A stretch of 32,000 nt of DNA, from contig CP006913.1 in the NCBI GenBank assembly GCA_000503875.1, positions 1,080,001 to 1,112,000 on the forward strand, written 5' to 3'. This document shows positions 1 to 32,000 of this stretch, one piece after another. The position numbers and the translations under genes were made by a program. This stretch comes from Candidatus Saccharimonadota bacterium (GTDB lineage Bacteria; Patescibacteriota; Gracilibacteria; Absconditabacterales; Absconditicoccaceae). Each line of letters opens with the position of its first letter. Positions within the stretch are counted from its first letter, which is position 1. The notes beneath the pieces were generated by a model that saw nothing but the letters and a program-made list of their open reading frames with translations, made no database searches and was not told the origin of the DNA.

Positions 1-70
1 CCCTATCGGAGTCGAACCGATCACCTCCTGCGTGCAAAGCAGGCGCTCTAGCCAAATGAGCTAAGGGCCC
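1..70 (-). tRNA. tRNA-Ala(UGC), 3' end cut by window edge
   Basis: Revcomp GGGCCCTTAGCTCATTTGGCTAGAGCGCCTGCTTTGCACGCAGGAGGTGATCGGTTCGACTCCGATAGGG folds as a cloverleaf. Anticodon loop is TTTGCAC (TGC) and T-loop is TTCGACT. The last ~4 acceptor nt lie off-window. Confidence 0.9.
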
Positions 71-128
71 ATGTAATGGGCAACGTTTTTACTTAGATAT
101 CTTTTCTAGAGGTGAATATCTAAACACC

Positions 129-202
129 TAATCAAGCGCTCCTTGTCCTCTTTAGAGGATAGCCAAATGAGCTAAGGGCCCATGTAATGGGCAACGTTTT
201 TA
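129..202 (-). repeat. Partial duplicate of the tRNA-Ala leader plus tRNA nt 1-22, fused to a conserved 38-nt module
   Basis: 160-202 is an exact 43-nt copy of 49-91 (tRNA nt 22..1 plus a 21-nt leader). 129-166 (TAATCAAGCGCTCCTTGTCCTCTTTAGAGGATAGCCAA) is identical to 11198-11235 beside tRNA-Gly(GCC). Confidence 0.85.
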
Positions 203-5956: not shown

Positions 5957-7285
5957 TTATTGTTTGATAAACTTAGCAGTTACAGAACCGCGATTTTCAT
6001 CAAAAACTTTAATTACATACGTACCCGATCTATATGACGAAACATCAAGTCGATATTCAAAAGCATCAATCTTTTCTGTTGAAACAATTCTTCCAGAAAG
6101 ATCAAATACTTGTAAATGAGAGGCTTTTGCCTTTCCAAAGCTAAGATAAATATAATCTATCGCAGGATTTGGATAAAGGTTAATTTCCTGGTCTTTGATG
6201 TTATCTTCAATACCGGTTATTACAAGATAATTTACCCTAACAGTTTTTGAAGCTGTGCTTATTCCACAAAACGAATTCATGGTTAAAGTAACAGTAAAGT
6301 ATCCATAATACGGATTGTAATTATATGTCGGCGACATCTCATTGGATGTACCACCTCCAGTAACATAGTTGTTACCAAAATGCCAATTATAAGAATATGC
6401 AGTTTTATAATCTGGAATAAAGTTGATATTTGAACCAAATATTGGTCCATATGGACCTTGTCCAGTATCTTGCACATAATTAAAGTTAGCTACTATTGGG
6501 ACAACCCAAATAGAGTCTGTTACATAACATGTTTTATCAGAATAAACCATACCTGCTGTAAGTAAATATTGAGTAGGCGAACTAACTACAACAGAATAAT
6601 TTGAATTGTTTGATAAAACATTAAGAGGATCAGATACATAACTCCAAGCATAGTTATTTGCAAAACCTAAAGCTTGAAGAGAAACACTGTTTCCAAAACA
6701 ATTGAAAGCTGTGTCTTTTACAGAAACATTCGGTCCTGAATAAACGTTAGTTGTTGCGTCAGCAACTTCAGTTCCCGAGGTATAAGTAACTGTAAATGAA
6801 CCTGATGTTGTTGCAATAAACATTCTATTTGCAACATTGTCTCCAGAGAAAGAACCAGTTCCTGGATCAGGAATATAAAGATCCAATAATAAGGTATCTC
6901 CGATACATAAGGATGGTAAAGGGTTTTGAATCCACAAAGATGCTTGAACAATAACTTGATCGGTTGTTGAACAACCATAAATATTTGTTACTGTACACAT
7001 ATATGTTCCCAAAGAAGGAAGCTGTGGTTGCATCAATGGAGAGGTAAAACCATTTGGTCCTTCCCAATAATAAGTATACGTCTGCCCAGGTCCAGGGTCA
7101 TCAGTAGTGATGACCGGCTGGACAAAAGCTTGACCCGAAGATAAATACAAAACCGCAACAACATTTACATCCGGTGAGGATGAAAAACTTTTGGGCGAAG
7201 ACGTATATACCTTCGATAATGGTTGACTTAAACCCAGTAATGGGAAGAAAGCCAAACACATTAGAAGTAATTTGTTTGCTTTCAT
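5957..7285 (-). CDS. Secreted Ig-like repeat protein with a T9SS type A (Por) C-terminal sorting domain (442 aa)
   Basis: Uninterrupted standard-code ORF with no UGA. Probable start is MKANKLLLMCLAFFPLLGLSQP (signal peptide). The C-terminus INLYPNPAIDYIYLSF...LQVFDLSGRIV...LDVSSYRSGTYVIKVFDENRGSVTAKFIKQ fits the Por_Secre_tail consensus (lYPNP..., GxY..., k..k). Confidence 0.85.
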   Translation of the reverse strand: MKANKLLLMCLAFFPLLGLSQPLSKVYTSSPKSFSSSPDVNVVAVLYLSSGQAFVQPVITTDDPGPGQTYTYYWEGPNGFTSPLMQPQLPSLGTYMCTVTNIYGCSTTDQVIVQASLWIQNPLPSLCIGDTLLLDLYIPDPGTGSFSGDNVANRMFIATTSGSFTVTYTSGTEVADATTNVYSGPNVSVKDTAFNCFGNSVSLQALGFANNYAWSYVSDPLNVLSNNSNYSVVVSSPTQYLLTAGMVYSDKTCYVTDSIWVVPIVANFNYVQDTGQGPYGPIFGSNINFIPDYKTAYSYNWHFGNNYVTGGGTSNEMSPTYNYNPYYGYFTVTLTMNSFCGISTASKTVRVNYLVITGIEDNIKDQEINLYPNPAIDYIYLSFGKAKASHLQVFDLSGRIVSTEKIDAFEYRLDVSSYRSGTYVIKVFDENRGSVTAKFIKQ

Positions 7286-7298
7286 AATTTCCTTTTTA

Positions 7299-8582
7299 TT
7301 AGGGTTCATAACAACCATTGCTGTCAATAACAATATAACCAGTTGTAAAACCAGTTATTTGTGTTCCTGAAGCGGGAGGAGTAGCTAATCTTACATCAAA
7401 TTGAGCAGTTCCACCAGAAGATGTTACTGTAACATTTGGTTGATTGTTTGGCGCAACCAAAACATAAGGATGAGTAGATTGAACTAAACTAACCGTATAA
7501 TTTGGAGTACCTCCAACAACAGTTATTGTATAAGTAATAATATCACTACCACAAATAGTTAATGGCATATTGTCTACAATACTAGTAATTGTTGGATATC
7601 CATGAACGGTAAACACAAGAGTATTAGAAGTAGACCAACAAGCACCTTGCTGTGATCTTACAACAATATTATGTGTTCCAACTGTTAATCCAGCGGTTGT
7701 AAACGTAGTTGCTGTTTCACCAGGAACCACAACACCATTATCAGACCATTCATATAAAGTAGCGCCTGTTGTTGTTGCTGTAAAGATAACCGAAGTTCCA
7801 AAACAAGCAGCATCACCAGTAGCATTACTAGTAAGAACGGTTGGGTTAGTACCAATAGCCGAAACAGTGATTCCATTAATTGTAGTATCACAACCAGCAG
7901 TATTAGTAACAACAACATGATAAGTTCCTGTTGATGATAAACCACCTTGAGTAGCGTTTGTTCCTAGTGGATTATTAAGTAAATCATACCACTGAACAGA
8001 AGCAAAAACTCCATTAACGGTAGCGGTTGCATCAGCAGATCCACAATTTTCAGGTGTTGTTGTTATAGTTACGTTTGGTAAAGCATGAACAGTAAACACA
8101 AGAGTATTAGAAGTAGACCAACAAGCACCTTGCTGTGATCTTACAACAATATTATGTGTTCCAACTGTTAATCCAGCGGTTGTAAACGTACTTCCTGTTT
8201 CACTAGGAACCACAACACCATCATCAGACCATTCATATAAAGTAGCGCCTGTTGTTGTTGCTGTAAAGATAACCGAAGTTCCAAAACAAGCAGCATCACC
8301 AGTAGCATTACTAGTAAGAACGGTTGGGTTAGTACCAATAGCCGAAACGGTGATTCCATTAATTGTAGTATCACAACCAGCAGTATTGGTAACAACAACA
8401 TGATAAGTTCCTGTTGATGATAAACTACCTTGAGTAGCGTTTGTTCCTAGTGGGTTATTAAGTAAATCATACCACTGAACAGAAGCAAAAACTCCATTAA
8501 CGGTAGCGGTTGCATCAGCAGATCCACAATTTTCAGGTGTTGTTGTTATAGTTTGGTGAACCCACAATAGTTTTGGGATCAC
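7299..8582 (-). CDS. Secreted Cys-containing Ig-like repeat protein; the body is out of frame with its own signal-peptide ORF
   Basis: 427-aa ORF with no UGA, containing two ~161-aa near-identical repeats (TITTTPENCGSADATATVNG...LVFTVH). A signal peptide MKRFLLLLGMVFTCTIVLGQ starts at 8658 in another frame. The C-terminal ~95 aa are paralogous to the 8687..9592 product. Confidence 0.7.
   Translation of the reverse strand: MIPKLLWVHQTITTTPENCGSADATATVNGVFASVQWYDLLNNPLGTNATQGSLSSTGTYHVVVTNTAGCDTTINGITVSAIGTNPTVLTSNATGDAACFGTSVIFTATTTGATLYEWSDDGVVVPSETGSTFTTAGLTVGTHNIVVRSQQGACWSTSNTLVFTVHALPNVTITTTPENCGSADATATVNGVFASVQWYDLLNNPLGTNATQGGLSSTGTYHVVVTNTAGCDTTINGITVSAIGTNPTVLTSNATGDAACFGTSVIFTATTTGATLYEWSDNGVVVPGETATTFTTAGLTVGTHNIVVRSQQGACWSTSNTLVFTVHGYPTITSIVDNMPLTICGSDIITYTITVVGGTPNYTVSLVQSTHPYVLVAPNNQPNVTVTSSGGTAQFDVRLATPPASGTQITGFTTGYIVIDSNGCYEP
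7587..8552. repeat. Tandem duplication, 2 x 483 nt, near-identical
   Basis: The run ...ggtaaacacaagagtattagaagtagaccaacaagcaccttgctgtgatcttacaacaatattatgtgttccaactgttaatccagcggttgtaaacgta occurs at ~7609 and again at ~8092. The protein repeats differ at only a few residues. Confidence 0.85.
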
Positions 8583-8686
8583 TAGTTTTTGGTGTCGGTT
8601 GTCCTAAAACTATAGTACAAGTAAACACCATTCCGAGCAATAAAAGAAATCTTTTCATTGTTTTATTTTTTTAGTTTATTAATTTT

Positions 8687-9592
8687 TTAGTAACCATAAC
8701 AACCATTGTCATCAACAACAATATAACTAGTTGTAAAACCAGTTACTGTCTGTCCAGGTGCTGGAGGATTTGCCAATCTTACATCAAATTGAGCAGTTCC
8801 ACCAGAGGTTGTTACATTTACACTTGATTGATTGTTTGGACTAACCAAAACATATGGACGAGACGATCCAATTAAACTAACAGTATAATCTGGAGTACCT
8901 CCAGTTACTGTTATAGTATAAGTAATAATCTCTGTCCCACAAAAACTTAATGGTTTGTTGTCCGAAATAGTAAATGTTGGTTGTTGATATACCTCCAAAA
9001 CAATAACTTCGGCGGTATAATCAATTGCACCCAAACAACTTGGGTTTTTAATCATAGCTCTAAATCTTTTAGTAACAGTCGAGCTATTTACCTGTAAAGT
9101 TAGAGAGTGGTTTATCGCTGAATAGTTTGGGTTTGCTGTTAAATTAACCCAGGAACCGGTCCATTCTTGCCACTGATAATCAAAATTTTCATTATAATCA
9201 GCTGCGAGAAAATTTCTTGTTGTATTTGGACAATCTCGAACATTTTGTTGAGTTAAAAGTCCAGAAGCAACACCAGGATTTGGAAATAATTTAACCCATT
9301 TTGTAGCAACAACTGTTGCCCCATTCATAAAATAAACAAATACATCAATCTCTGTAGAAAAAGTTAAAGTAGCTTGATTTCCTACAGCAGTAATACCTAT
9401 CGGATTTGATGTCCAAGAGGTAGAGGTAGCACCACCCAAAGATGCGGTTATAGTAACAACAGTTCCGGGTCTTACATTAATTACGTTGTTTGTACCATCT
9501 TTTGAATATTGGTCTGATGATACAGTAAGTGTTTGACCAAACATTGTTGTTGTTATAAAAACAAACAACAAAAAAACAATTTTTGTTTTCAT
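8687..9592 (-). CDS. Secreted protein (301 aa) sharing a C-terminal domain with the 7299..8582 product
   Basis: Signal peptide MKTKIVFLLFVFITTTMFGQ. No UGA. C-terminus ...ITYTITVTGGTPDYTVSLIGSSRPYVLVSPNNQ...TAQFDVRLANPPAPGQTVTGFTTSYIVVDDNGCYGY parallels the neighbouring gene. Confidence 0.8.
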   Translation of the reverse strand: MKTKIVFLLFVFITTTMFGQTLTVSSDQYSKDGTNNVINVRPGTVVTITASLGGATSTSWTSNPIGITAVGNQATLTFSTEIDVFVYFMNGATVVATKWVKLFPNPGVASGLLTQQNVRDCPNTTRNFLAADYNENFDYQWQEWTGSWVNLTANPNYSAINHSLTLQVNSSTVTKRFRAMIKNPSCLGAIDYTAEVIVLEVYQQPTFTISDNKPLSFCGTEIITYTITVTGGTPDYTVSLIGSSRPYVLVSPNNQSSVNVTTSGGTAQFDVRLANPPAPGQTVTGFTTSYIVVDDNGCYGY

Positions 9593-9782
9593 ATTTTTAA
9601 GTTTATTGGTTTTGCTTGTTAATTAACTCCTTCGTTATGAAAATAGGCTTTTTTACAACAAATTATAACTTCCTCATTTTCATACTGCTGTTATAACAAT
9701 TTAAATACAAAAGTCAAGACAATATACAAAAAAGAACATAAAAATAAATGACATAAATAGCCAGATTTTTTTTATATATATA

Positions 9783-9816
9783 AAAAAAATCCCCCTTACT
9801 AAGAAGAGGGATTTTT
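9783..9816 (-). terminator. Intrinsic terminator of the 9819..10958 gene
   Basis: The minus strand reads AAATCCCTCTT-cttagt-AAGGGGGATTT followed by a T8 run. Confidence 0.6.
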
Positions 9817-9818
9817 AA

Positions 9819-10958
9819 TTATTTTTGAAATTTTGCGAATTCTTTAAAATATGTTTCTAAATATGTTCTAGCCAATGGTAAATATTCTTTTTGTTTCATA
9901 TCAAGTACTAAATATAATATTCCCAAGAAATCATTATATAATTTTGTAAGTGCTCCTATTTCTTTATAAACAAGAATTTTACTATCACTTGTCAGATTTT
10001 CAAAATTTTCTATCATATAACTTGGATCTGTCACTTTCAAAAGTTTTTTATTGATTGCTGTATATAAACTTCTATTTAAACTTAATATTGTTTTTTTTAT
10101 TAAGGCTTGTCTATATTTTGGTACAAAAATTCTAATTTTTATTCATTGAGGAGTGTATTCATAAACAACGCTTTTTTCTTCTTTAATAATTTCTAATATT
10201 GCATCAACACCCGTTCCCAAAGAAACATTACATGTTTTTCCAAGACTTCATCCCGCACAATAATATCCTGTCTTGAGGGTATAAATACCGTTTGTACAAG
10301 TAAGATATATATCAGAACACATAGAACTTGATCCTCAACCTCATCATCCTCCTACTGTTCATCAAGTAATATTTACAGTAAATGAAGGTATATTTAAAGG
10401 TGTACTAACATTTCCCGCTAAATCTTGTCAAATAATAGAACAATTATTATAAACTCAATTAATTAAATTAGAAAAGGTAATTGTGTTGTTTCAAGTATTA
10501 GCGTTTATAGAACAAGTTCAACAAGATCATAAACAAGATATTGTTACTGGTCCTTCACTAGAACTAAATCAAAATGTAGCTGTTCTATTTAAAACAGAAA
10601 CACCTAAACTAGATAAAATAGGATTTGTTATATCACTAGACACTATAGTACAACTTTCTCATTTGTTTTTAAATACAGTTTCACAATAACATCAATCAGG
10701 ATCTCAACAAAGTTCTCAATTTAAAATATTAGTCGTATTTAAATCCATTGCTGGATCGCCTGGAGTACATGTACCTCAATTACTTAAATTAGGTACTGTT
10801 GTTAAACCACAAAGACATCCTCAACCAGTTTCACATAATTCTCAAGTATTACAAATTAATCCACCTGCTAAACTACAAGCTCCATATACAACTACACCAA
10901 AAAAATATCCAGCTCCTGCTAAAATAACTAATAATAACAATTTTGACACGTTTTTCAT
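9819..10958 (-). CDS. Secreted Cys- and Gly-rich hypothetical protein (379 aa), very UGA-rich
   Basis: ATG at 10958 (MKNVSKLLLLVILAGAGYFFG...). I checked every codon down to ORF 9819..10040: there is no in-frame TAA/TAG and more than 25 in-frame TGAs. One run reads TGGTVGGGGGGGSSS (10323-10367). Confidence 0.75.
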
Positions 10959-11078
10959 AATATATTTAGTAAATAGATAAACAATGTTTTTCTTTTTTTA
11001 TCTTTTTACTATAAAATGTCAAGTCTTTTTTCTGTCTTTTTTATTTAAAGAAAAAAAGCTATTTAAAGCTTTTAAAAA

Positions 11079-11155
11079 TGGAGCAAGCAACGGGATTTGA
11101 ACCCGCAACCTCTTCCTTGGCAAGGAAGCGCTCTAGCCAATTGAGCTATGCCTGC
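11079..11155 (-). tRNA. tRNA-Gly(GCC), CCA encoded
   Basis: Revcomp GCAGGCATAGCTCAATTGGCTAGAGCGCTTCCTTGCCAAGGAAGAGGTTGCGGGTTCAAATCCCGTTGCTTGCTCCA. Anticodon stem is CTTCC/GGAAG, loop TTGCCAA, discriminator U. Confidence 0.9.
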
Positions 11156-11197
11156 GTTTTTATAGTAAGTATCTGTTAGAGAAAACATCTGAATATA

Positions 11198-11259
11198 TAA
11201 TCAAGCGCTCCTTGTCCTCTTTAGAGGATAGCCAATTGAGCTATGCCTGCGTTTTTATA
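11198..11259 (-). repeat. Partial duplicate of the tRNA-Gly(GCC) leader plus tRNA nt 1-22, fused to the same 38-nt module as at 129-166
   Basis: 11229-11259 is an exact 31-nt copy of 11134-11164. 11198-11235 is identical to 129-166. Confidence 0.85.
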
Positions 11260-11665
11260 CTTCTATAATTTCTAATTTACTTTCTTCTTTTTCTTTTTTT
11301 GCTTTTGCACTAACAAAAAAATTAGTCCAAGCTAAAACAACTAGAAAAGATCATAATATTTTAACTAAATCACTAATATAAACATAAGATTCAATATTAT
11401 TTATCAAAACACTATCTCATATTAAAACCAAAGCTATTCATAGAACAAACAAACTAACTTTATTAATTTTCATATATATAGGATGTATTGCAAACAAAAC
11501 AAATAAATAAATTCCAACTATAGCTAAAATACTATAATACAATGTATTAAATTCCAAAAATCATTCACTAACAATAATTTTTGAAGAAAAAAATAAATAA
11601 GCTATATATCATATAAATCATCATGAAATAATTCATATAGAAATTCTTTTTAATAAATCTTTCAT
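11255..11665 (-). CDS. Hypothetical membrane protein (136 aa)
   Basis: ATG at 11665, TAA at 11255-11257. All codons checked; 9 in-frame TGAs. MKDLLKRISIGIISGGFIGYIAYLFF... has about 4 hydrophobic helices and a KAKKEKEESK tail. Confidence 0.55.
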
Positions 11666-17360: not shown

Positions 17361-17489
17361 ATTTTATTTCTTGTTATGGCAAGATAGTACAAGAGTTAAG
17401 GTCTAAGTACTAAGAACTAGGCTATTCTCTCTTGAAAACATATACCAAATCTATAAAAGATACTGACGTTTTATTTTTTATGTTTACAA

Positions 17490-18455
17490 ATGATTAAGAA
17501 ATTTTCTATTATCAAAAGAGCCTATATCCGATTAACAGTTGGGTGATTACTTCTTATAGGTGCATGGACATTGTTTTTTATGAACATAAGACTTTCAGAA
17601 GAATTTACTGGTGGGGTAAAAATAACTATAGCCGCTACGGTTGATGAACAAAAACTAAACGATTCTTTAACAAAATATCTTATAGACCAAAAATATCCAA
17701 ATAGCAACGTTCTCGTACAAATAAATGACGAAGAAACAGATATTTCTATTAGAACTAGAGTAGAAAATGACGAAAAGGTAAACGAACTATCAAAAGAACT
17801 AAAAACATTTCTTCTCGAAGGAGAATATATCACCTCTCAAGACCAAGTAATAGCACAAACAATAACGGGTCCTAGCGTAGGAGATTATATGAAAACATCA
17901 GCAAGAAATGCTTTACTTGTTGGATTGGCATTGATGGCTATTTACATGCTTTTCTCTTTTGCGGCCATTAGAAAATCAGTATCTCCAAGTATATTGGCTA
18001 TCGTTACTATCGTTACTATGATTTTCGATGTATCTATTCCTGCTGGAGCATTTGGATTCTTAATGATGATCGATCATTCTATAGCTATAGATTCAGTATT
18101 TATTATAGCGATTTTGGCCAATATGTGATATAGTATCAACGATACCATTATTGTTTTCGATAGAATTAGAGAAAATATTCAAAACAAGAACGAAAAGAAT
18201 ATTGTCTATGGAAAATTGTTTGATGATAGTGTCCGACAAACTATGAGAAGATCTTTTGGAACAGTATTTTCAACCTTTCTAGTAATTGTTTGTATGTATA
18301 TTTTTGGAACTGGTGCAGTAAAAGATTTTGCCTTCACTATTGGAATAGGAGTTATTGCTGGATCATATTCATCAATCTTTATATCAGCTCCATTGGCATA
18401 TATTATGATGGGAAAATATAAAAAAGAAAGAAAAGCAATGTCAGAAATCAACTAA
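17490..18455 (+). CDS. secF: Protein-export membrane protein SecF (321 aa)
   Basis: ORFs 17571.. and 18216.. are in frame and joined by TGA 18126-18128, giving ANM-G-YSINDTIIVFDRIRENI, the SecD/SecF GYSxNDTIVxFDRxREN motif. Six TM segments. Confidence 0.85.
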
Positions 18456-19718: not shown

Positions 19719-20064
19719 ATATAAATTCACTAGTTCTATGAAACAATGAATTATATGTTTTTTTATATAGTGAAAAACAATAAATAAGGAAATACCTATT
19801 TCTGTGAAAGAGTGAAATGTGGGGATAAAGCGACTGGTTTTTTTAATGGCCGGAAGTTTTTTTATAAAATTCACTAATTCTATGAAACAATGAAATAGTT
19901 TTTTCCTTGTGTTTTTGGTATATTGCCTATGTTAATAAAAAATAATTTACTATATAAGTGAAATAGTGAAATTATTTTAATAGAAATATAAAAGATAAAA
20001 AGCCCTTGAAATTTTATATTTAAAAGATTATATTCACTATATAAGTGAAATAGTGAAGTTATTT
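19719..20064. promoter_or_regulatory. Non-coding repeat array carrying the TTCACTAT/ATAGTGAA motif, upstream of the HTH gene
   Basis: Pair A: 19719-19750 and 19863-19894 (TATAAA(A)TTCACTA[G/A]TTCTATGAAACAATGAA). Pair B: 19947-19977 and 20033-20064 (TT[A/C]ACTATATAAGTGAAATAGTGAA[A/G]TTATTT, an internal inverted repeat TTCACTAT-n9-ATAGTGAA). An extra ATAGTGAA lies at 19767-19774 and GTGAAA at 19804-19818. All six frames are closed. Confidence 0.6.
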
Positions 20065-20079
20065 ATTTTTTTTAGTACC

Positions 20080-20388
20080 ATGATTCATCCAGGACGACAT
20101 CTATCAAACAAACTCAAAGAATATTGACGAACGCAAAAACAATTTGCGGATCTTTTGGGAAAAAAAGTAAGTGAAGTAAATGAACTTATAAATGGCAAAA
20201 GAAATATAACTATCCAACGAGATATTCTTCTTGCTCTTGTTTTTGATCAAGCAGAAGGAAATCGACTCGCTATGCAAAACGAATATGATTATAGCATCGT
20301 AAAAATGAAGCTCGACAAGAAAAAACTTGATGATATCAAAAAAAGGAAAAATCAACTTAACAAACACCATGTATTTTCTACCTTTTAA
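20080..20388 (+). CDS. HigA/VapI-like XRE-family HTH protein (102 aa)
   Basis: MIHPGRHLSNKLKEY-G-RTQKQFADLLGKKVSEVNELINGKRNITIQRDILLALVF matches the HigA antidote pattern (iHPGe.L.e....g.sq..lA..lgv....i.eii.GKr.it). No toxin ORF lies next to it. Confidence 0.75.
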
Positions 20389-21566: not shown

Positions 21567-21584
21567 TTGGGTTATATATATTAA

Positions 21585-24500
21585 TTAAAACCCATTCATA
21601 GTCAAAGTAAGAGTACCACTATAACTACCTGGAGCCTGATTAGCAGGTACGTTTACTAATAATCAAACATTATCAGCACTTACCCTACAAATCTTGTTAC
21701 TATCAGGAATCTTTTCAAATATTTCATAAGGCGCACTATAGAATTGTGTAGCTGTTCCATTATCTCCTGTACAAGCTGAGTCACCTTCAACAACAACAGG
21801 ATTATGAGAGATAAGAAGATTACTACCAGAAATAACATTTGATTTTTCATTAATTAGATCAGTTGTCTGAATAGTTAATGTCCACCCTCAATTAATACCT
21901 CTATAATCTTGACAATACCAAGTAGAAGGGAAGGTTCCAGTAAAGGTATAAGGGACACCAATTTTCACCTCTTGAGCATCCATAGTGAGTGATGTTCAGT
22001 AGATACATTCGGTAACTCATCAGGTTATTGTTAGGGTAATATTTCAATTAGTTCAATTTCCAGAAGATCAATCGGTATATTCAATAGTATCAGAAGTAGA
22101 AATATCAGCAATAAAATCGCTATCTAAATCGAACTCAGCATAAACAGTTTTAGTTCAAGTACCGGCAGAAAGAGTTCGAGATTTGGTATCAGAAATAGAT
22201 TCCCAAGCTGATCGGTTAGAATTATCATTAGAAAATCTCATATACGCTATAGCACCAGAGATATTTAAAGTTACATTTTGAGAATTAGTAGAAGCATCAT
22301 CATTATTGATAACAAAAGAGCCAGTTCCTTCTCCGATTGCGAAATATGTAGCGTGATCTGTAGTAAACTCAACATAAGGAATTCAAGCAATATCTATGAC
22401 TGTAGAGGTTCAGTGGAAAGACCAGTTAGAAGATAAATTTTGAGAATAGAATATATCTACAACATCATCAATATTTTTACCTAAAGCAGGCATTCTCACA
22501 GTAACAGACTTACTAAAATCAATTCTCTTGGTAGCATCACCAAATTTAGTGAGAGCAACAACATTATCAACCAATTTAGTACTACCCGTACTCAAAAGAA
22601 CAGGAGCTTGTAAGATACCAGTAAATCATTGTCCATTAGTAGTAAGTAATGTTCAGCTATCATACTGAACTTCTACATTATTTAGATAATAATCTTGAGT
22701 ATAATTAGAAGTTGGCGATTGCATAATAATATCAACTAATATTTCATTAGTAATTCCAGGGGTAAAACTAATAGCATATGTTCAAGTATAATAATTACCA
22801 GATAAAGAATAAAGAGCAAGAGTTATTTTGCCGTCCATTACTTCCTTAGTTAATTCGGTAATAAAATCGATTTGATTAGTAGAGTTTATAACACTACAAT
22901 AGTTATTATTTGTTTCAGTTGATCAATTTGGATACGCTATTATTCCTGGATTATCTGTGCAAATAGAAGATAAAGATAAGTCCCATAAGTTTAATAAATT
23001 ATCAAAAACATTACTTGTTATAGATGATATAAAATTTTTATTTAAAGAAAGCCCATTTAAATTATCAAGTTCATAAAAATTTCAAACATCAATAGAAAGT
23101 AATTGATTATTATCTAAATAAAGATACATTAAAGAAGGAAGTCATGAAAACCCACTAACTTCAATAGAATTTATTTGATTGTAACTTAAATATAATTCGT
23201 TGAGAGAAGAGAGCCCATTAAAGTCTCCAGATTCAATAGAATTTATTTGATTTGTACTTAAATCAAGGAAAATTAAAGAAGAGAGCCCATTAAAGTCTCC
23301 AGATTCAATAGAATTTATTTGATTTGAATTTAAATCAAGATAGGTTAAAGAAGAAAGCAAATTAAAGCTATTAGATCCAATGGAACTTATTTCATTTCAA
23401 TATAAATAAAGATCTGTTAAATTAGTAAGTCCAACAAAATCTCAAATATCAATAGAATTTATTTGATTATTACCTAAATCAAGATAGGTTAAAGAAGAAA
23501 GCAAATTAAAGCTATTAGATTCAATAAAACTTATTTCATTTCAATATAAATAAAGATCTGTTAAAGAAGAAAGATCAGCAAAATCTCAAAGATCAATAGA
23601 ATCTATTTGATTGTTATTTAGATCAAGATAAGTTAAAAAGGAAAGTCAAATAAAACTTCCAGATTCGATAGAACTTATGGCATTTCAATCTAAGCTAAGT
23701 TGGGTTAAATTATTAAGACCAGCAAAATCTCAAACATCAATAGAACTTATTTGATTATATACCACATTTTCTGGACCAATATCTCTAGGTAATTTAAAGT
23801 TTCATAAATAAAGGTCAGTTAAATTATCAAGTCAATAAAAACTTCCAGATTCAATAGAATTTATTTGATTGTATCATAAATTAAGATAAGTCAAAGAGGA
23901 CAGTTCTGAAAACCCATAAGCTTCGATAGAGCTTATTTTATTAATATTTAAGTTAAGCTGAGTTAAATTATCAAGTCCAATAAAATCTCAAACATCAATA
24001 GAAGTTATTTGATTATAATTTAAATAAAGGTTTTTTAATAAAAATAATCAACTAAAACTTCACCTTTCAATTGATGAAATTTGATTTTGTGTTAGGCTGA
24101 GATAATCTAAATTAGTAAGTCCAATAAAATCTCAAACATCAATTCATGTAATTAGATTATTATCCAATAAAAGACCTGTTAAATTAGTGGCTCATAAAAA
24201 CCCTCAACTTTCAATAGAAGTAATCTGATTTTGAGATATTTCAAGTCTAATTAAAGAAGAAAGACCATTAAATGTTCCGGCTTTAATTGTAGTTAGTTTA
24301 TTTTGATCTAAATCAATAATATTTAAATTAGAAAGCCCTAAAAAACTTCAACTTTCTATTGATGTAAGATTTCCACCATCCATATAAAGTCATATCAAAT
24401 TATCAAGTCCAACAAAATCACCAACATCAATTCAAGTTAATGGATTATTTCTTATAGCAAGATATTGTAAATTACTATGATTTATAAAAGAATCAGAAGC

Positions 24501-24656: not shown

Positions 24657-24821
24657 TTTTTATAGTAAAAAATAAATTCATTTAATTATATTCAAAAACC
24701 TCTTTTTTGTCAAAAAATAGAGGAGTTTTTATCTAGTAAAACCTTTGTCCTACTTTTGTCAGTTTTTTTCTTTTTTGGGAATTTTACAATTCGGGGGATT
24801 TATCCTGTAAATCTCAAAAAG

Positions 24822-25673
24822 ATGAAAAAAACAACAGCGATCAATGTCCAATGAGTGGTTATTGGCATAGTAGAAACTAATAAAGAAAGTTATATTAGTT
24901 TGACTGATATAGCTAAGTATAAAAATTTTTTTCAGCCAGCAGATGTTATTAAAAACTGGCTCAGGTCAAAAAGTACAATAGATTTTTTATGATTATGGGA
25001 GTTTATAAATAACCCAAATTTTAAAGGGGTCGAATTCGACCAGTTTAAAAATGAAGCAGGTAATAATTATTTTGTTTTATCTCCTCAAAAATGGATAGAA
25101 AAAACACAAGCAAAATGATTAATAACAAAATCATGAAGATATTGATGATGAACATTTGCTCATAAAGACATTGCTATAGAATTTGCTAGTTGGATTTCGG
25201 TAGAGTTTAGGCTTTACCTTATCAAAGAATTCCAAAGACTCAAAGAACAAGAGACCAAATCATTAGACCGAGACGTCAAGAGATTTCTCACTAAGATGAA
25301 CTATAGAATCCACACAGACGCCATCAAAGATAATCTTATTCCCAAAGAACTTTCTCAGGATGAGATAAACCATATTTACGCTGATGAGGCAGATGTACTA
25401 AATAAGGCGCTATTTGGACAAACAGCAAAACAACGAAAAGATCAGAATCTGCATAAAAAATGCGACAGTCCTGTAAAGGGAAATATGAGAGACTATGCAA
25501 ATATAGAACAATTAATAATCTTAGCAAACTTAGAAAGTATCAATGCAGAGTTTATAAAAATGTGACTAGAGCAACCCAAACGTCTTCAAATATTAAACCA
25601 AACAGCAATTAGTCAAATGAAATCATTGATCCAAAACCAGAATTTAGAAAATATAAATAGGCCAAATTCTTAA
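24822..25673 (+). CDS. KilA-N domain-containing DNA-binding protein (283 aa)
   Basis: ...ESYISLTDIAKYKN...VIKNWLRSKSTIDFL-G-LWEFINNPNFKGVEFDQFKNEAG...KS-G-RY-G-G-G-TFAHKDIAIEFASWISVEFRLYLIKEFQRLK...MNYRIHTDAIKDNLIP...ADVLNKALFGQTAKQ. This is a close match to the widespread KilA-N family pattern. Confidence 0.85.
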
Positions 25674-28765: not shown

Positions 28766-29704
28766 ATGAAACAAGCATATGTAAGAGGGTATTATGGATA
28801 CAAAAACTTTGGAGATGAATTGCTTTTTTTTGGAGTAATTGATTGGATTTTTTCTCATTATCCAGAAATTCAAGAGCTTGTTATAGAGGTAAACAACAAA
28901 ACCTGGATGGAATATCGAGTCAAAAAAAACTACCAGGAATACACTTCCAAAGAACAATATCATAAGATTTCTTTTGTGGAAATTAAACAACATCGTTGGA
29001 AATATCTTACCCATATTATTAGTTTGTTGGGCTTTGGAAAATATAGATCGTATTTCAAATTCTTTGGTTGATGAGAGGTTCTTAGCGATGAAAGAGATTT
29101 TCCTCATGATGGACGAAACATTCCTCTTCTTTTTGGAACAACAGTGAGAAAATGAAAATTTATGCTTCTTGGAGGAATAGGAACACCCAGAAAAACAAGA
29201 ACAAAATTGCTTTATGATATATTACTTCCCAAAGCAGAATGAATTATAACAAGAGAAGAAACTTCGTATAAAACAGCGTTAAAACGAAATAAACACACAG
29301 CTTCCTATCAAGATTTTAGTCAAAATATTATAGAAAATACAGCTTGTAAAAAACAAGATACTTCTCCATCATACGTGCTTATAAACTGCAATTTAAAATC
29401 TCGAAATCCTGACACAAAAGAATCTATTGTTGAATTTTGCAAGACTCATGCTCAACACAAAAAAATCTTTTTTCCTTGTGATATGAACGATGATATTTAT
29501 TGCTTTGCGGATCTTCAACAAGACATTCCTGATTTAGAAATGTATGATCGAACCAAGCATTCATTACAAGATTCTCTTTGTCTTTTTAAAGGTTCAACGG
29601 CAGCAATTTGAGCAAGACTTCATTTTCTTTTACCGCTCAAATTGTACAAAAAAGATTTTACAGCAATTAAATACGCAGAAAAAATATATAAGATGATTGA
29701 TTAG
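28766..29704 (+). CDS. Polysaccharide pyruvyl transferase family protein (CsaB-like, 312 aa)
   Basis: MKQAYVRGYYGYKNFGDELLFFGVI... (GyyG..N.GDe motif). FKFFG-[TGA]-[TGA]-EVLSDE gives GGGevlsD. ORF 29375.. is in frame. The TAG at 29702 overlaps the stop of the convergent gene. Confidence 0.7.
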
Positions 29705-30078
29705 AATCCATTCATAGTCAACGTAAGCGTACCACTATAATTACCTGGAGCCTGATTAGCAGGGACATTTACTAATAATCAAACATTATCAGCGCTTACT
29801 TTACAAATTTTATTACTTCCTGAAGCTTTTGCAAAGAGTACATAAGGTGCATTATAAAATTGTGTAGCTGTTCCATTATCTCCTGTACAAGATGAATCAC
29901 CTTCAACGACAACAGGATCATGAGAGATTAAGAGATTGCTACCAGAGATAACATTTGATTTTTCATTAGTTAAATCAGTTGTTTGGATAGTTAATGTCCA
30001 TTCTGAAGTAATACCTCTATAATCTTGACAATACCAAGCAGAAGGAAAGGATTCCAGTAAAGGTATATGGAATACCAA
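29701..30078 (-). pseudogene. Detached C-terminal WxL-like module of the delta-60-repeat protein, +1 out of frame with the body
   Basis: ...FPSAWYCQDYRGITSEWTLTIQ...LLVNVPANQAPGNYSGTLTLTMNGF-TAA is paralogous to 21585-22000. Compared with the paralogue there is one extra base at 30051 (ggattcc versus ggttcc). Confidence 0.65.
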
Positions 30079-32000
30079 TTTTCACTTCTTGAGCATCCAT
30101 AGTAAGAGAGGTTCAGTAGACACATTCAGTAACTCATCACGTGATGGTGAGAGAAATATTTCCTTGAGTTCAATTTCAAGAAGTTCAATTTCAAGAAGTT
30201 CAATCTGTATATAGGATAGAATCAGAAGTAGTATAAATATCTCAGTTGGCAATAAATTGTGCAGAAATAGTTTTTTCACTGTATCACTCGGATAATACCC
30301 AAGATTTAGTAGTAGAAATAGGTTCCCAATCAGACCAAATAATACCGTTATTAGAAAATCTCATTCCTGTGGCAGTAGGAGCAGCTATAGTAAGATTTAC
30401 AGATTGAGAAAGCGTAGAAGCTTCATCGTTATTTATGACAAAAGATCAAGTAGATCAAGCGATAGCAAAATAGGTAAAATGATTTGTGGTAAAAGAAACA
30501 TAAGATTGTCCATCAATTTCAGAAACAATACCACCTTTTTCAAATATCCAATCTACACCATTTTGAGATGAGTAGATAGAGACAGGGTCTCAGATAGAAG
30601 AAGTAGGAGCAGGAATACCTAGAGTAGCAGCTCAGTTGGTTAGTGTAAGAGATTCAGAAGGACTACCGACAGATATAGCTGAAAGGATTGGTTTGTTGTC
30701 TACATTAGAAACTGAGTAAGTAGTAGGGGGATAAATAATTCAATTATAATTTGAACTATCAGATTTTTTGAATTGGAGATTTTGAGGCAATGAAAGCCTT
30801 AATGTATTTTCAGAAATAATATGTAAATTTGTGAGTATTTTTCAGCTAGTTTCTTTAAGAGATATTTTTGAATTTCCAAAAAAAACATCGCCAAAAGTTT
30901 CAACATTTTGATATTCATATCATTTGTTATTAAATTCATCTTTTATATTCAATAAATCACTCGAATTTGGGATATAAACAGGAATATTTCATATCAATGA
31001 TACTATATAATTTGCTGTTTCTTCGTTGTAGGAAGTAAAATATCATCAAACAAAAATTCCTCCATCATTTTCTATCACTATTTTATCGACCTCATTATCA
31101 AATCCATCTCAAATATCAAATGAGTTGTCTCTAGATCAATCAGCATTTAATCTGATAATATTGTTTGCAAGCTGTCCATTATAAGAAGTAAATCGTCCAC
31201 CAACCAAGATTTTTCTATCATCTTGAATTGCAGTTGTCATTATATAAGCAGATCAAATTCAATCATCGAACCCACTTCAAATACCAAATGAAGAATCTAT
31301 AGATCAATCAGTATTTAATCTAACAAGTCAGTTTGCAGGCTGTCAATTATAAGAAGAAAATTGCCCAGCAACCAAAATTTTCCCATCATTTTGGATAGTT
31401 GTTGCATATATGTAAGCGGATCAGTTTCAGTCATTAAAACCATCTCAAATATCAAATGAGTTGTCTCTAGATCAATCGATATTTAATCTAATAAATCAGT
31501 TTGCAGGCTGTCAATTATAAGAAGAAAATTGTCCACCAACAATAATTTTTCCATCATTTTGGATGGTTGTTGTATATATGTAAGCGGATCAGTTTCAGTC
31601 ATTAAAACCACTTCAAATATCAAAAGAAGCATCTCTAGTTCAATCAGCATTTAATCTAACAAGTCAGCTTACAAGATCTCCATTGTAAGAAGTAAATCAT
31701 CCTCCAACCAAGATTTTCCCATCATTTTGAATTGCTGTTGTATATGCGTAAGCAGATCAATTTCAATCATCAAACCCATCTCAAATATCAAATGAGCTGT
31801 CTTTAGTTCAATCAGTATTTAATCTAACAAGTCAGTTTGCAGGTTGTCCATTATAAGAATAAAATTGTCCACCAACCAAGATTTTTCCATCATTCTGGAC
31901 AGTCGTTGTATATACGTAAACAGATCAATTTCAATCATTAAAACCACTTCCTATATCAAAAACAGAATCTATAGACCCATTAGTGTTCAATCTAACAAGT
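30017..32000 (-). CDS. Delta-60-repeat (beta-propeller) surface protein; 5' end is off-window and the body frame ends prematurely at TAG 30017-30019
   Basis: 180-nt / 60-aa repeats: ...GGQFSSYNGQPAN-G-(F/L)(I/V)RLN.DGS.D.SF.IG.GF..G..SAY.Y...IQNDGKI(I/L)VGG... Then ...MRFSNNGIIWSDWEPISTTKSW...ILYTDGTSGNGTSGNGTQGNISLTITGGVTECVYGTSLTMDAQEVKIGIPYTFTG, colinear with the LRR protein. Confidence 0.7.

Follow-up and report, generated by a model that had tools for sequence, protein, structure and literature searches.

Why would a tRNA gene be preceded, on its own strand, by a copy of its own 5' part with a hairpin built into it? This question is raised by two loci in a 32,000-nucleotide stretch of bacterial DNA from assembly GCA_000503875.1 (hereafter the window, meaning the whole stretch at its full length). 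Upstream of tRNA-Ala(UGC), and again upstream of tRNA-Gly(GCC), the first 22 nucleotides of the gene are followed by a G+C-rich hairpin unit, by six tRNA-derived bases and by a linker that leads to the intact gene. This arrangement is called the cassette below, and related cassettes were found in other Absconditabacteria (SR1). The reading preferred here, given a probability of about 0.45, is that the cassette is a structured pre-tRNA 5' leader specific to Absconditabacteria, which would have arisen from tandem duplication of a tRNA gene, with recombination spreading and deleting it and selection holding its RNA fold.

Anatomy of the Ala and Gly cassettes

All tRNA genes near the cassettes lie on the minus strand, and the features are described here in the direction of transcription. 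The Ala cassette begins with a 21-nucleotide leader copy, TAAAAACGTTGCCCATTACAT (182-202), which three nucleotides (ATT) separate from the upstream neighbor, tRNA-Tyr(GUA) (206-290). Next comes the pseudo 5' copy GGGCCCTTAGCTCATTTGGCTA (160-181), equal to tRNA-Ala nucleotides 1-22 and thus spanning the 5' strands of the acceptor and D stems and the D loop; it is an exact copy of 49-70. The hairpin TCCTC-TAAA-GAGGA occupies the pseudo D loop (146-159), flanked on its 3' side by CAAG (142-145; general form YAAR). GAGCGC (136-141) is a copy of tRNA nucleotides 22-27, that is, the 3' strand of the D stem plus two bases, and is followed by the heptamer TTGATTA (129-135) and by an AT-rich variable linker of 37 nucleotides (92-128). 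The second leader copy, again TAAAAACGTTGCCCATTACAT (71-91) and matched exactly by 182-202, stands immediately 5' of the real tRNA-Ala. The intact gene is represented by its nucleotides 1-70 (1-70), its 3' end lying beyond the window start, and scores 53 bits against the Rfam tRNA model with truncation at the 3' end; the complete tRNA-Ala(UGC) was located on the source contig (L010, 17249-17325). An initial annotation of this DNA had given the same minus-strand order, from leader and tRNA nucleotides 1-22 through the insert, GAGCGC, TTGATTA and linker to leader and tRNA-Ala, and had described an 18-nucleotide D-loop insertion (hairpin plus CAAG) after which the next six tRNA bases resume. Both descriptions are correct, and its 43-nucleotide block (160-202) is to the base an exact copy of 49-91, the maximal exact repeat at the locus.

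The Gly locus has the same layout (11259-11079, minus strand). Pseudo tRNA-Gly nucleotides 1-22 (11229-11250), with a 9-nucleotide leader copy TATAAAAAC (11251-11259), form an exact copy of 11134-11164. The hairpin TCCTC-TAAA-GAGGA (11215-11228), CAAG (11211-11214), GAGCGC (11205-11210) and TTGATTA (11198-11204) are identical to 129-159, and the linker segment (11156-11197) contains the second leader copy TATAAAAAC at 11156-11164. The intact tRNA-Gly(GCC) follows at 11079-11155 (ARAGORN; Rfam tRNA, 70 bits). As the annotation had claimed, the 38 nucleotides at 129-166 recur at 11198-11235 in the same position relative to the tRNA; this is the maximal exact match between the loci, and its 31-nucleotide core had no occurrence across 100 shuffles. 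The Gly and Ala linkers share weak similarity only (z about 3). Neither tRNA-Tyr nor tRNA-Gly(UCA) carries a cassette, again in agreement with the annotation.

The linker and leaders have further features of their own. The Ala linker holds the hairpin AGGTG..CACCT, and the 8-base-pair pairing reported there (TTAGATAT/ATATCTAA) is present in the window and is not conserved in relatives. The counterpart linker in L002 (loci fetched from relatives are designated by L numbers) has a covarying stem, AGGTAAA/TTTACCT; linker sequence is otherwise poorly conserved. On the sense strand the Ala leader pairs with tRNA nucleotides 1-4 (GCCCAT-TAC-ATGGGC). Read antisense, the Ala leader with tRNA nucleotides 1-4 (67-81 and 178-192, plus strand) forms a terminator-like hairpin, GCCCATGTAATGGGC, followed by AACGTTTTTA, and comparable CCCAT..ATGGG pairing occurs in the empty Tyr-Ala spacers of L016. 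At the window Gly locus (11251-11300), a promoter-like segment of about 40 nucleotides (TAGATGGGTTAGAC...TTATTTAA) is absent that occurs between the upstream gene and tRNA-Gly in L023 and L027; both tRNA 5' copies are preceded by TATAAAAAC in its place.

Three ordinary roles for the linker region were considered, and none is supported. Short open reading frames do begin past the hairpin, at TTG or ATG, but orthologous cassettes do not conserve them, and leader peptides are thus not supported. TTGATT is similar to the -35 box in the promoter of tRNA-Gly(UCA), but no -10 box stands at a workable spacing for an internal promoter. A likeness to boxB/boxA antitermination signals comes from the tRNA-derived block and does not extend to the Arg cassettes.

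A cassette family in Absconditabacteria

Relatives were found by a scan of species-representative genomes, by a metagenome scan, and then by neighbor-protein anchors, namely L20, the 379-amino-acid protein adjoining tRNA-Gly, and the protein upstream of tRNA-Arg. In all, 11 cassettes were identified in six or more Absconditabacteria assemblies, each lying 5' of, and in the same sense as, its cognate intact tRNA. Their order is tRNA nucleotides 1-21/22, a G+C hairpin of the form YCC..GGR, YAAR, tRNA nucleotides 22-27, a variable linker of 2-70 nucleotides, and the intact tRNA. Among 117 tRNA instances in the fetched loci, cassettes occur only at Ala(UGC), Gly(GCC) and Arg(UCG). The initial annotation had reserved the case of a chance duplication unique to two loci; the module instead shows conservation in relatives, where it adjoins the 5' part of a tRNA gene in every case. 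It had likewise allowed for an assembly artifact. The same architecture appears in independent ENA, NCBI and JGI assemblies, and because five independent assemblies share it the artifact explanation can be set aside as negligible.

The metagenome-assembled genome (MAG) ELA609, from the species-representative scan, holds two modules. One (L002) lies in the orthologous Gly(UCA)-Tyr-Ala cluster; the other (L003) lies 5' of a second tRNA-Ala, after tRNA-Arg(UCG), and has two hairpin units, the additional one (CCCTCC-TAC-GGAGGA TAAA) lying upstream of the first at a distance of four bases. The metagenome scan returned the Arg-Ala locus again (L009), where tRNA-Arg(UCG) has its own cassette of the same plan and different sequence: GAGGGATTGGTGTAGTGGTAA, TCCAGC-GTT-GCTGGA CAAG, CATGAC, 58 nucleotides, and tRNA-Arg. 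The Arg cassette of L021 has the hairpin CCCTGC-GTT-GCAGGA CAAA, and the Gly cassette of L027 has CCCTC-TAAA-GAGGG CAAG. A short form of 49 nucleotides was found 5' of tRNA-Arg(UCG) in L034, with the hairpin at nucleotide 10/15 (GAGGGATTGG, CCCCGC-TAAA-GCGGGA TAAA TTCC, GTGGTAACATGAC, AA, tRNA). The heptamer TTGATTA is identical in window-Ala, window-Gly and L027-Gly; its counterparts are TTGTTTA or TTGCTTA in L002, L003 and L009, and TTGATTT in L021-Arg.

What these cassettes have in common is not the fixed 38-nucleotide module first proposed. It is a copy of tRNA nucleotides 1-27/28 that carries, in the D arm, YCC(N2-3)-loop(3-4 nucleotides)-(N2-3)GGR plus YAAR, with the linker optional. The hairpin unit has six sequence variants at three positions in the D arm (after nucleotide 10, 17 or 21), and CAAG, CAAA or TAAA stands directly 3' of every unit. 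Leader duplication, which had also been taken as general, was seen at window Ala, window Gly and L009 Ala and is lacking from L027-Gly, L003-Ala and each of the three Arg cassettes. No orphan hairpin modules were found in about 295 kb of related sequence, and in about 400 kb scanned, G+C hairpins with a TAAA loop occur in tRNA-derived contexts only, always in the tRNA sense. After the tRNA block, window-Gly and L021-Arg have TTGATTnnATATTCAG in common, with a linker similarity of z about 4; homology between linkers of different tRNA species is marginal (z about 3-4) and was not relied on.

The recurrent hairpin raised the possibility of a guide-RNA-like unit read in antisense, in which a repeat-like hairpin and the complement of the tRNA 5' part would guide a nuclease or repressor onto the tRNA gene. 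A Cas12-type CRISPR (clustered regularly interspaced short palindromic repeats) RNA, a solitary CRISPR repeat and a unit of the TIGR (tandem interspaced guide RNA) kind served as models. In antisense the cassette reads YUUR-UCCNN-loop-NNGGA followed immediately by tRNA complement, like the 3' end of a Cas12a repeat, and the variant CCCCGC-TAAA-GCGGG-ATAAA resembles the type I-E repeat, which serves as a lead only. Against these likenesses, the window contains no array and no cas or tas gene. Its two copies of the hairpin core are about 11 kb apart with no spacer array, which led to rejection of a CRISPR array or solitary repeat, and a Cas12a-like or type I-E-like repeat was rejected on either strand, also because the short form leaves a target match of 10 nucleotides only. 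Rfam searches of both window loci and the short form at E<=10 returned only tRNA, with all other models far below their gathering scores and no CRISPR direct-repeat match. According to one report, units of tandem interspaced guide RNA (tigRNA) in bacteria of the candidate phyla radiation (CPR) can have a hairpin between two spacers (bioRxiv 10.64898/2026.09.09.750476). The cassettes, however, are single units whose two tRNA-derived blocks have the same sense and are contiguous in the target, unlike TIGR dual spacers, and no Nop-domain (Tas) protein is present among the window proteins scanned, so TIGR-Tas was rejected as well. Given also that the TAAA-loop hairpins are consistently in the tRNA sense, a guide-like function is considered very improbable.

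Constraint and predicted fold

The degree of conservation within the cassette can be judged from the Gly cassettes of the window and L027, two genomes whose argS genes have about 81% nucleotide identity. Over the copy, hairpin, CAAG, GAGCGC and TTGATTA, 51 of 53 positions are identical, as against 24 of 51 (about 47%) in the linker. The two differences amount to one compensatory U-A to C-G pair (TCCTC-TAAA-GAGGA versus CCCTC-TAAA-GAGGG). Between the long Arg hairpins (TCCAGC-GTT-GCTGGA and CCCTGC-GTT-GCAGGA) there is one compensatory A-U to U-A pair, together with one change that breaks the closing pair. The six bases 3' of the hairpin equal those of the cognate tRNA in all 11 cassettes (GAGCGC, or CATGAC for Arg), even though 18-24 foreign bases set them apart from the 5' copy and unrelated sequence then follows. 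Gene conversion can account for the identity of the 21-22-nucleotide block. It cannot easily account for the 6-mer, which is too short and too isolated for gene conversion alone; it can be explained by selection that maintains its pairing with the D-stem 5' strand.

These patterns bear on the proposal that the cassettes are neutral by-products, that is, decaying tandem tRNA copies whose 5' identity is kept by gene conversion and whose palindromic insertions arose by chance. Such an origin would fit the dispensability of the cassettes, the internal tRNA block kept by those at Arg, and the presence, within the same clusters, of further tandem tRNA copies in decay (8949-9022 in L030/31; on the source contig, the spacer between Arg(UCU) and Glu). 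Neutral decay should not, however, be as uneven as it is between the 5' module and the linker, and it is also opposed by the perfect isolated D-stem block, by the compensatory stem changes, by the recurrence of one hairpin motif in independent events, and by the confinement of TAAA-loop hairpins to tRNA-derived contexts in the tRNA sense. A purely neutral account is accordingly considered improbable.

In the RNAalifold prediction, the D stem, the pairing of UUUG (D loop) with CAAG, and the hairpin merge into one extended arm. In the short Arg form, the acceptor strand is predicted to pair with AAUUCC, located after the hairpin. Taken together, these observations favor a fold, in RNA or in single-stranded DNA, that would be under selection.

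Empty sites, transfer and probable loss

The initial annotation had proposed a comparison of orthologous tRNA loci for empty sites, and cassette-free sites were found at all four loci as clean, ordinary tRNA genes. The Tyr-Ala site is empty in L012-L020, L022 and L028-L032, the Gly site in L023-L026, the Arg(UCG) site in L003 and L033, and the Ala site after Arg in L021. One protein of L033 is also found on the 191-kb source contig of the window, and L033 is therefore probably from the same organism. At the Arg locus, filled L009 and empty L003 have identical promoter-like upstream sequence up to tRNA position +1. For the Tyr-Ala site, the closest sampled relative of the window, L012 (argS nucleotide identity 82%), is empty, and L002 (75%) is filled. 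L002 in turn appears to group with empty genomes (L016), as judged from its tRNA-Tyr variant and Tyr-Ala leader and not from a direct L002-L016 comparison. It follows that the Tyr-Ala site was either filled twice or repeatedly emptied.

One transfer could be traced. The leader before the real tRNA-Ala in L002 is that of the other tRNA-Ala locus of the same MAG (L003) and is unlike the Tyr-Ala leader of related genomes. Judged by this leader match, the cassette was shown in this one case to have been copied, with leader and tRNA 5' part, between tRNA-Ala paralogs by homologous recombination. Other tRNA genes whose D arms are similar may have received it by the same route. Precise loss probably occurs by recombination between the two direct copies, since the empty sites are clean, as such a deletion would leave them. 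Gene order also differs around these paralogs: L021 (1254-1830) and L020 (8210-9092) have the same L20 protein with different orders upstream of tRNA-Ala, Arg(UCG)-Ala-Arg(UCU)-Glu in one and Gly(UCA)-Tyr-Ala-Arg(UCU)-Glu in the other, which would reflect either chimeric assembly at the repeated gene or a rearrangement via the two tRNA-Ala paralogs.

The presence/absence polymorphism at four loci, with its clean empty sites, is what would be expected if the cassette were mobile DNA of a non-autonomous kind with the D-arm region of tRNA genes as its target. Its insertion would duplicate or carry the tRNA 5' part and so leave the gene intact. The hairpin and YAAR would be recognized in single-stranded DNA by an enzyme whose gene lies elsewhere (an HUH-type nuclease, a recombinase or another). 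Mobility would also suit the two structurally independent cassettes, long and short, at tRNA-Arg(UCG); the filling of Tyr-Ala in two clades whose nearest sampled relatives are each empty; and the hairpin motif common to unrelated tRNAs. Cassettes of one genome tend to agree at the base of the stem (TCC/GGA for both in L009, CCC/GGG for both in GCA_028693445.1), and the 5' end of the cassette is conserved while its 3' part is variable. Several features do not suit it. There are no terminal inverted repeats; the duplication measures 21-43 nucleotides and is not fixed like a target-site duplication; and a simple insertion fails to explain the 6-nucleotide tRNA block that lies inside the supposed element, between hairpin and linker. 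No copies occur outside tRNA leaders in the related DNA scanned (about 295-400 kb), and the sole documented transfer is ordinary homologous recombination. The proteins of the window and its flanks include no integrase, transposase, reverse transcriptase, Cas or Nop-domain protein. A mobile element is thus judged unlikely, though it is the strongest of the alternatives.

Direct repeats of a tRNA segment around foreign DNA could alternatively be the attL and attR scars of a phage or island that integrated in the D loop, supplied a new gene 5' end, and later lost its interior. The dyad symmetry of the D arm suits a core attachment (att) site, and the whole D arm is present in both copies, as attL and attR would have it. 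The described att sites in tRNA genes, however, reportedly duplicate the 3' part of the gene, and here the repeat consists of nucleotides 1-22 and 22-27, its 5' part. The hairpin interrupts the supposed core site, and no relative examined holds a full-length occupant. The Ala/Gly and Arg modules had no match in 2.9 million viral contigs, which counts against a phage origin and against the mobile element alike. On the supporting side, elements at dusA are known to restore the 5' end of the gene they target (PMC4482086). The initial annotation had named a mobile element, a decoy or processing leader, and an att scar as explanations. Its choice of field was sound, but the att scar is poorly supported because the called genes and Pfam domains of the window and flanks include no integrase or other recombinase, the repeats are only 2-70 nucleotides apart (45-70, with 2 in the short form), and their spacing is alike at independent loci. 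It is accordingly regarded as very unlikely.

Proposed origin and mechanism

The long Arg cassettes keep ACCGCAGTCGGGA, which corresponds to tRNA nucleotides ~39-51, and the Gly cassette period of 95 nucleotides equals a 77-nucleotide tRNA plus an 18-nucleotide hairpin unit. With other remodeled or decayed tandem tRNA copies in the same clusters, these features suggest tandem copying of the tRNA gene as the start of each cassette. The Arg block in particular points to a whole tandem copy in place of the simple insertion first envisaged. Homology to the parent is confined to nucleotides 1-27/28 in the Ala and Gly cassettes. Leader duplication may be either a remnant of the tandem duplication or a later conversion tract.

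Two remodeled copies were noted in their own right. Adjoining tRNA-Arg(UCU) in L030 and L031 (8949-9022; GCA_049287325.1 and GCA_049295995.1) is a tRNA-like gene, labeled 'tRNA-???' by ARAGORN, with an acceptor stem and D and T arms, in which a perfect hairpin, TACCGC-TAAA-GCGGTA, in the style of the cassettes, replaces the anticodon arm. On the source contig, a decayed remnant with T-arm-like TTCGATTC appears, by eye, to lie in the spacer between Arg(UCU) and Glu (L010, about 17410-17528).

On the preferred reading of a structured leader, a tandem duplication of the tRNA gene would have given an upstream copy that was cut down to its first 27-28 nucleotides, the acceptor 5' strand and the whole D arm. 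The pseudo D loop would then have been enlarged by the G+C-clamped hairpin unit, with the AT-rich linker joining the copy to the intact tRNA. Lying between the promoter (or preceding tRNA) and the real gene, the cassette would be transcribed as a pre-tRNA leader. Such transcription is suggested by the Arg locus, where the sole sigma-70-like site stands upstream of the pseudo copy; the same promoter adjoins the tRNA in the empty allele. Cleavage of the tRNA 5' end by RNase P would free the leader. A single long hairpin would form by stacking of the inserted hairpin on the YAAR/D-loop pairing and the pseudo D stem; it would lock the decoy 5' half so that it does not compete with the genuine 5' half, or would alternatively serve as a defined binding or processing signal. 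A possible benefit would be processing control or the diversion, by a decoy, of a factor with affinity for the tRNA 5' domain; the cassette may also simply be kept harmless.

Several points weigh against a selected leader. Its central steps, transcription, RNase P release and folding, are each deduced from sequence. Just two compensatory events were observed, and intrastrand template switching could keep palindromes intact without selection. Compared with shuffled sequences, the whole precursors showed no significant gain in the stability of their minimum free energy folds (z about -1.7 and -0.6). The hairpin position varies (after nucleotide 10, 17 or 21), which is unexpected for a precise RNA function, and the patchy distribution implies that the cassette is dispensable. 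Finally, independent cassettes have one hairpin motif in common (YCC..GGR and YAAR, often with a TAAA loop). This shared motif, and the TTGATTnnATATTCAG common to window-Gly and L021-Arg, make local duplication and decay insufficient as an explanation and keep the mobile-module reading alive. The motif hints at module copying between unrelated tRNA genes or at a common trans-acting partner.

Surroundings of the cassettes

The window has a G+C content of 31% and uses genetic code 25 (UGA = Gly), an assignment made because open reading frame coverage rises threefold when TGA is read as sense and because a tRNA with anticodon UCA is present. This tRNA-Gly(UCA) lies at 583-656 on the minus strand and is labeled 'SeC' by ARAGORN. 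The protein database translates the window genes with TGA as Trp, which gives an apparent mismatch of 5%. Proteins of the window and flanks include ArgRS, an RF-1-domain protein, PilT, LytR, RNase III, SecF, a pseudouridine synthase, MurG, and leucine-rich-repeat (LRR), Por_Secre_tail and KilA-N proteins.

Between the 3' end of tRNA-Gly(GCC) and argS lie genes for secreted or surface proteins (5957-10997; Por_Secre_tail, Ig-like and the 379-amino-acid protein). This block, with tRNA-Gly, is absent from the syntenic loci L016-L020, a variable-island behavior on the 3' side of the tRNA with no integrase visible. A 1023-amino-acid surface protein (22970-24470) contains 72-nucleotide (24-amino-acid) tandem repeats of the leucine-rich-repeat type, and a partial open reading frame at the window end (31097-32000) contains 168-nucleotide repeats. 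Two large surface proteins have a common C-terminal domain (21580-22240 and 29696-30364; about 86% nucleotide identity). KilA-N and HTH_3 proteins are often phage-linked; a KilA-N protein (24669-25673, plus strand) and a small HTH_3 protein (19999-20388, plus strand) occur here among housekeeping genes, with no other phage genes seen.

Significance

The cassette is real, recurrent and directly testable; it is also dispensable and restricted to a narrow lineage. A partner factor or an RNA function, if shown, would make it a new kind of element. It is tentatively possible, and not the favored outcome, that it represents a new class of tRNA-linked elements in which an exact mimic of the tRNA 5' domain and a G+C hairpin of the UAAA type form the site for a lineage-specific trans-acting factor. 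One version would be an RNA device, either a switch in pre-tRNA 5' processing or a decoy that draws off a nuclease or toxin directed at tRNA. The other would be a mobile element that passes from one tRNA gene to another, uses tRNA nucleotides 1-27 as homing arms and encodes no enzyme of its own. If it acts as RNA, the cassette would be the first case in nature of a pre-tRNA leader that mimics the 5' domain of its own tRNA, and it would give a handle on the control of tRNA maturation in episymbiotic, genome-reduced bacteria with code 25. If mobile, it would exemplify harmless 5'-side insertion into an essential tRNA gene, its hairpin being a signal for some enzyme partner. Either way, partial copies of this kind can mislead tRNA gene callers, att-based island prediction, and assembly across CPR tRNA clusters.

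Comparison with known systems

The earlier statement that no described element has this architecture stands as far as Rfam and the searchable literature go; literature searches on D-loop integration, tRNA-linked MITEs (miniature inverted-repeat transposable elements) and truncated tRNA leaders in CPR bacteria yielded no account of such a cassette. The nearest systems are each similar in part. Like the att sites of phages, integrative and conjugative elements and genomic islands, the cassette presents a tRNA segment twice as a direct repeat, leaves the gene intact, and places the partial copy beside foreign sequence. Those cases involve the 3' part of the gene, kilobases of DNA and an integrase, whereas the cassettes involve the 5' 27-28 nucleotides a short distance apart, a conserved D-loop hairpin and no recombinase.

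Repetitive extragenic palindromic (REP) sequences and bacterial interspersed mosaic elements, the palindrome-associated transposable elements (PATEs) derived from IS200/IS605, and MITEs are also small, non-coding and polymorphic, with a G+C hairpin and a conserved flanking tetranucleotide. The cassettes differ in having neither terminal inverted repeats nor a fixed short target duplication: the ends of the inserted segment are not inverted repeats, and the duplicated length ranges over 21-43 nucleotides. Hairpin and YAAR are present as in REP and IS200/IS605 elements, but they are not dispersed between genes; in the DNA scanned they occur within tRNA 5' copies only, always with the duplication. 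Resemblances to IS91 (CAAG target) and to Helitron-like ends were also considered, and these candidates were rejected as no other feature fits.

Archaeal non-canonical introns and split or permuted tRNA genes can likewise show a structured insertion of about 18-24 nucleotides in the D-loop region. The cassette has a bacterial host, lacks bulge-helix-bulge (BHB) geometry, the T arm and the 3' acceptor strand, and is followed by a complete gene. A BHB intron or split tRNA was rejected because the hairpin is flanked by 9 and 4 nucleotides, not by 3-nucleotide bulges around a 4-base-pair helix, and the 3' half is missing.

Tandem-duplication tRNA pseudogenes and tRNA-mimicking leaders are the two systems closest to the preferred reading. 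A cassette, like such a pseudogene, stands upstream of its parent and in tandem with it; the Arg cassettes retain an internal block, and decayed copies lie in the same clusters. It departs from a pseudogene in that nucleotides 1-27 are perfect while the rest is unrecognizable, and in that the insertion is kept by compensatory change and its motif recurs across tRNA species. Mimicking leaders and RNase P switches, such as the thrS operator, T-box partners and a synthetic RNase P riboswitch (PMC7897497), suggest that the cassette leader may control processing likewise; the natural tRNA-mimic leaders regulate mRNAs, not tRNA genes, and the example acting on a tRNA is synthetic (PMC7897497). The cassette is best filed as an unusual variant of partial duplication and pseudogenization of a tRNA gene, with the features of a structured leader.

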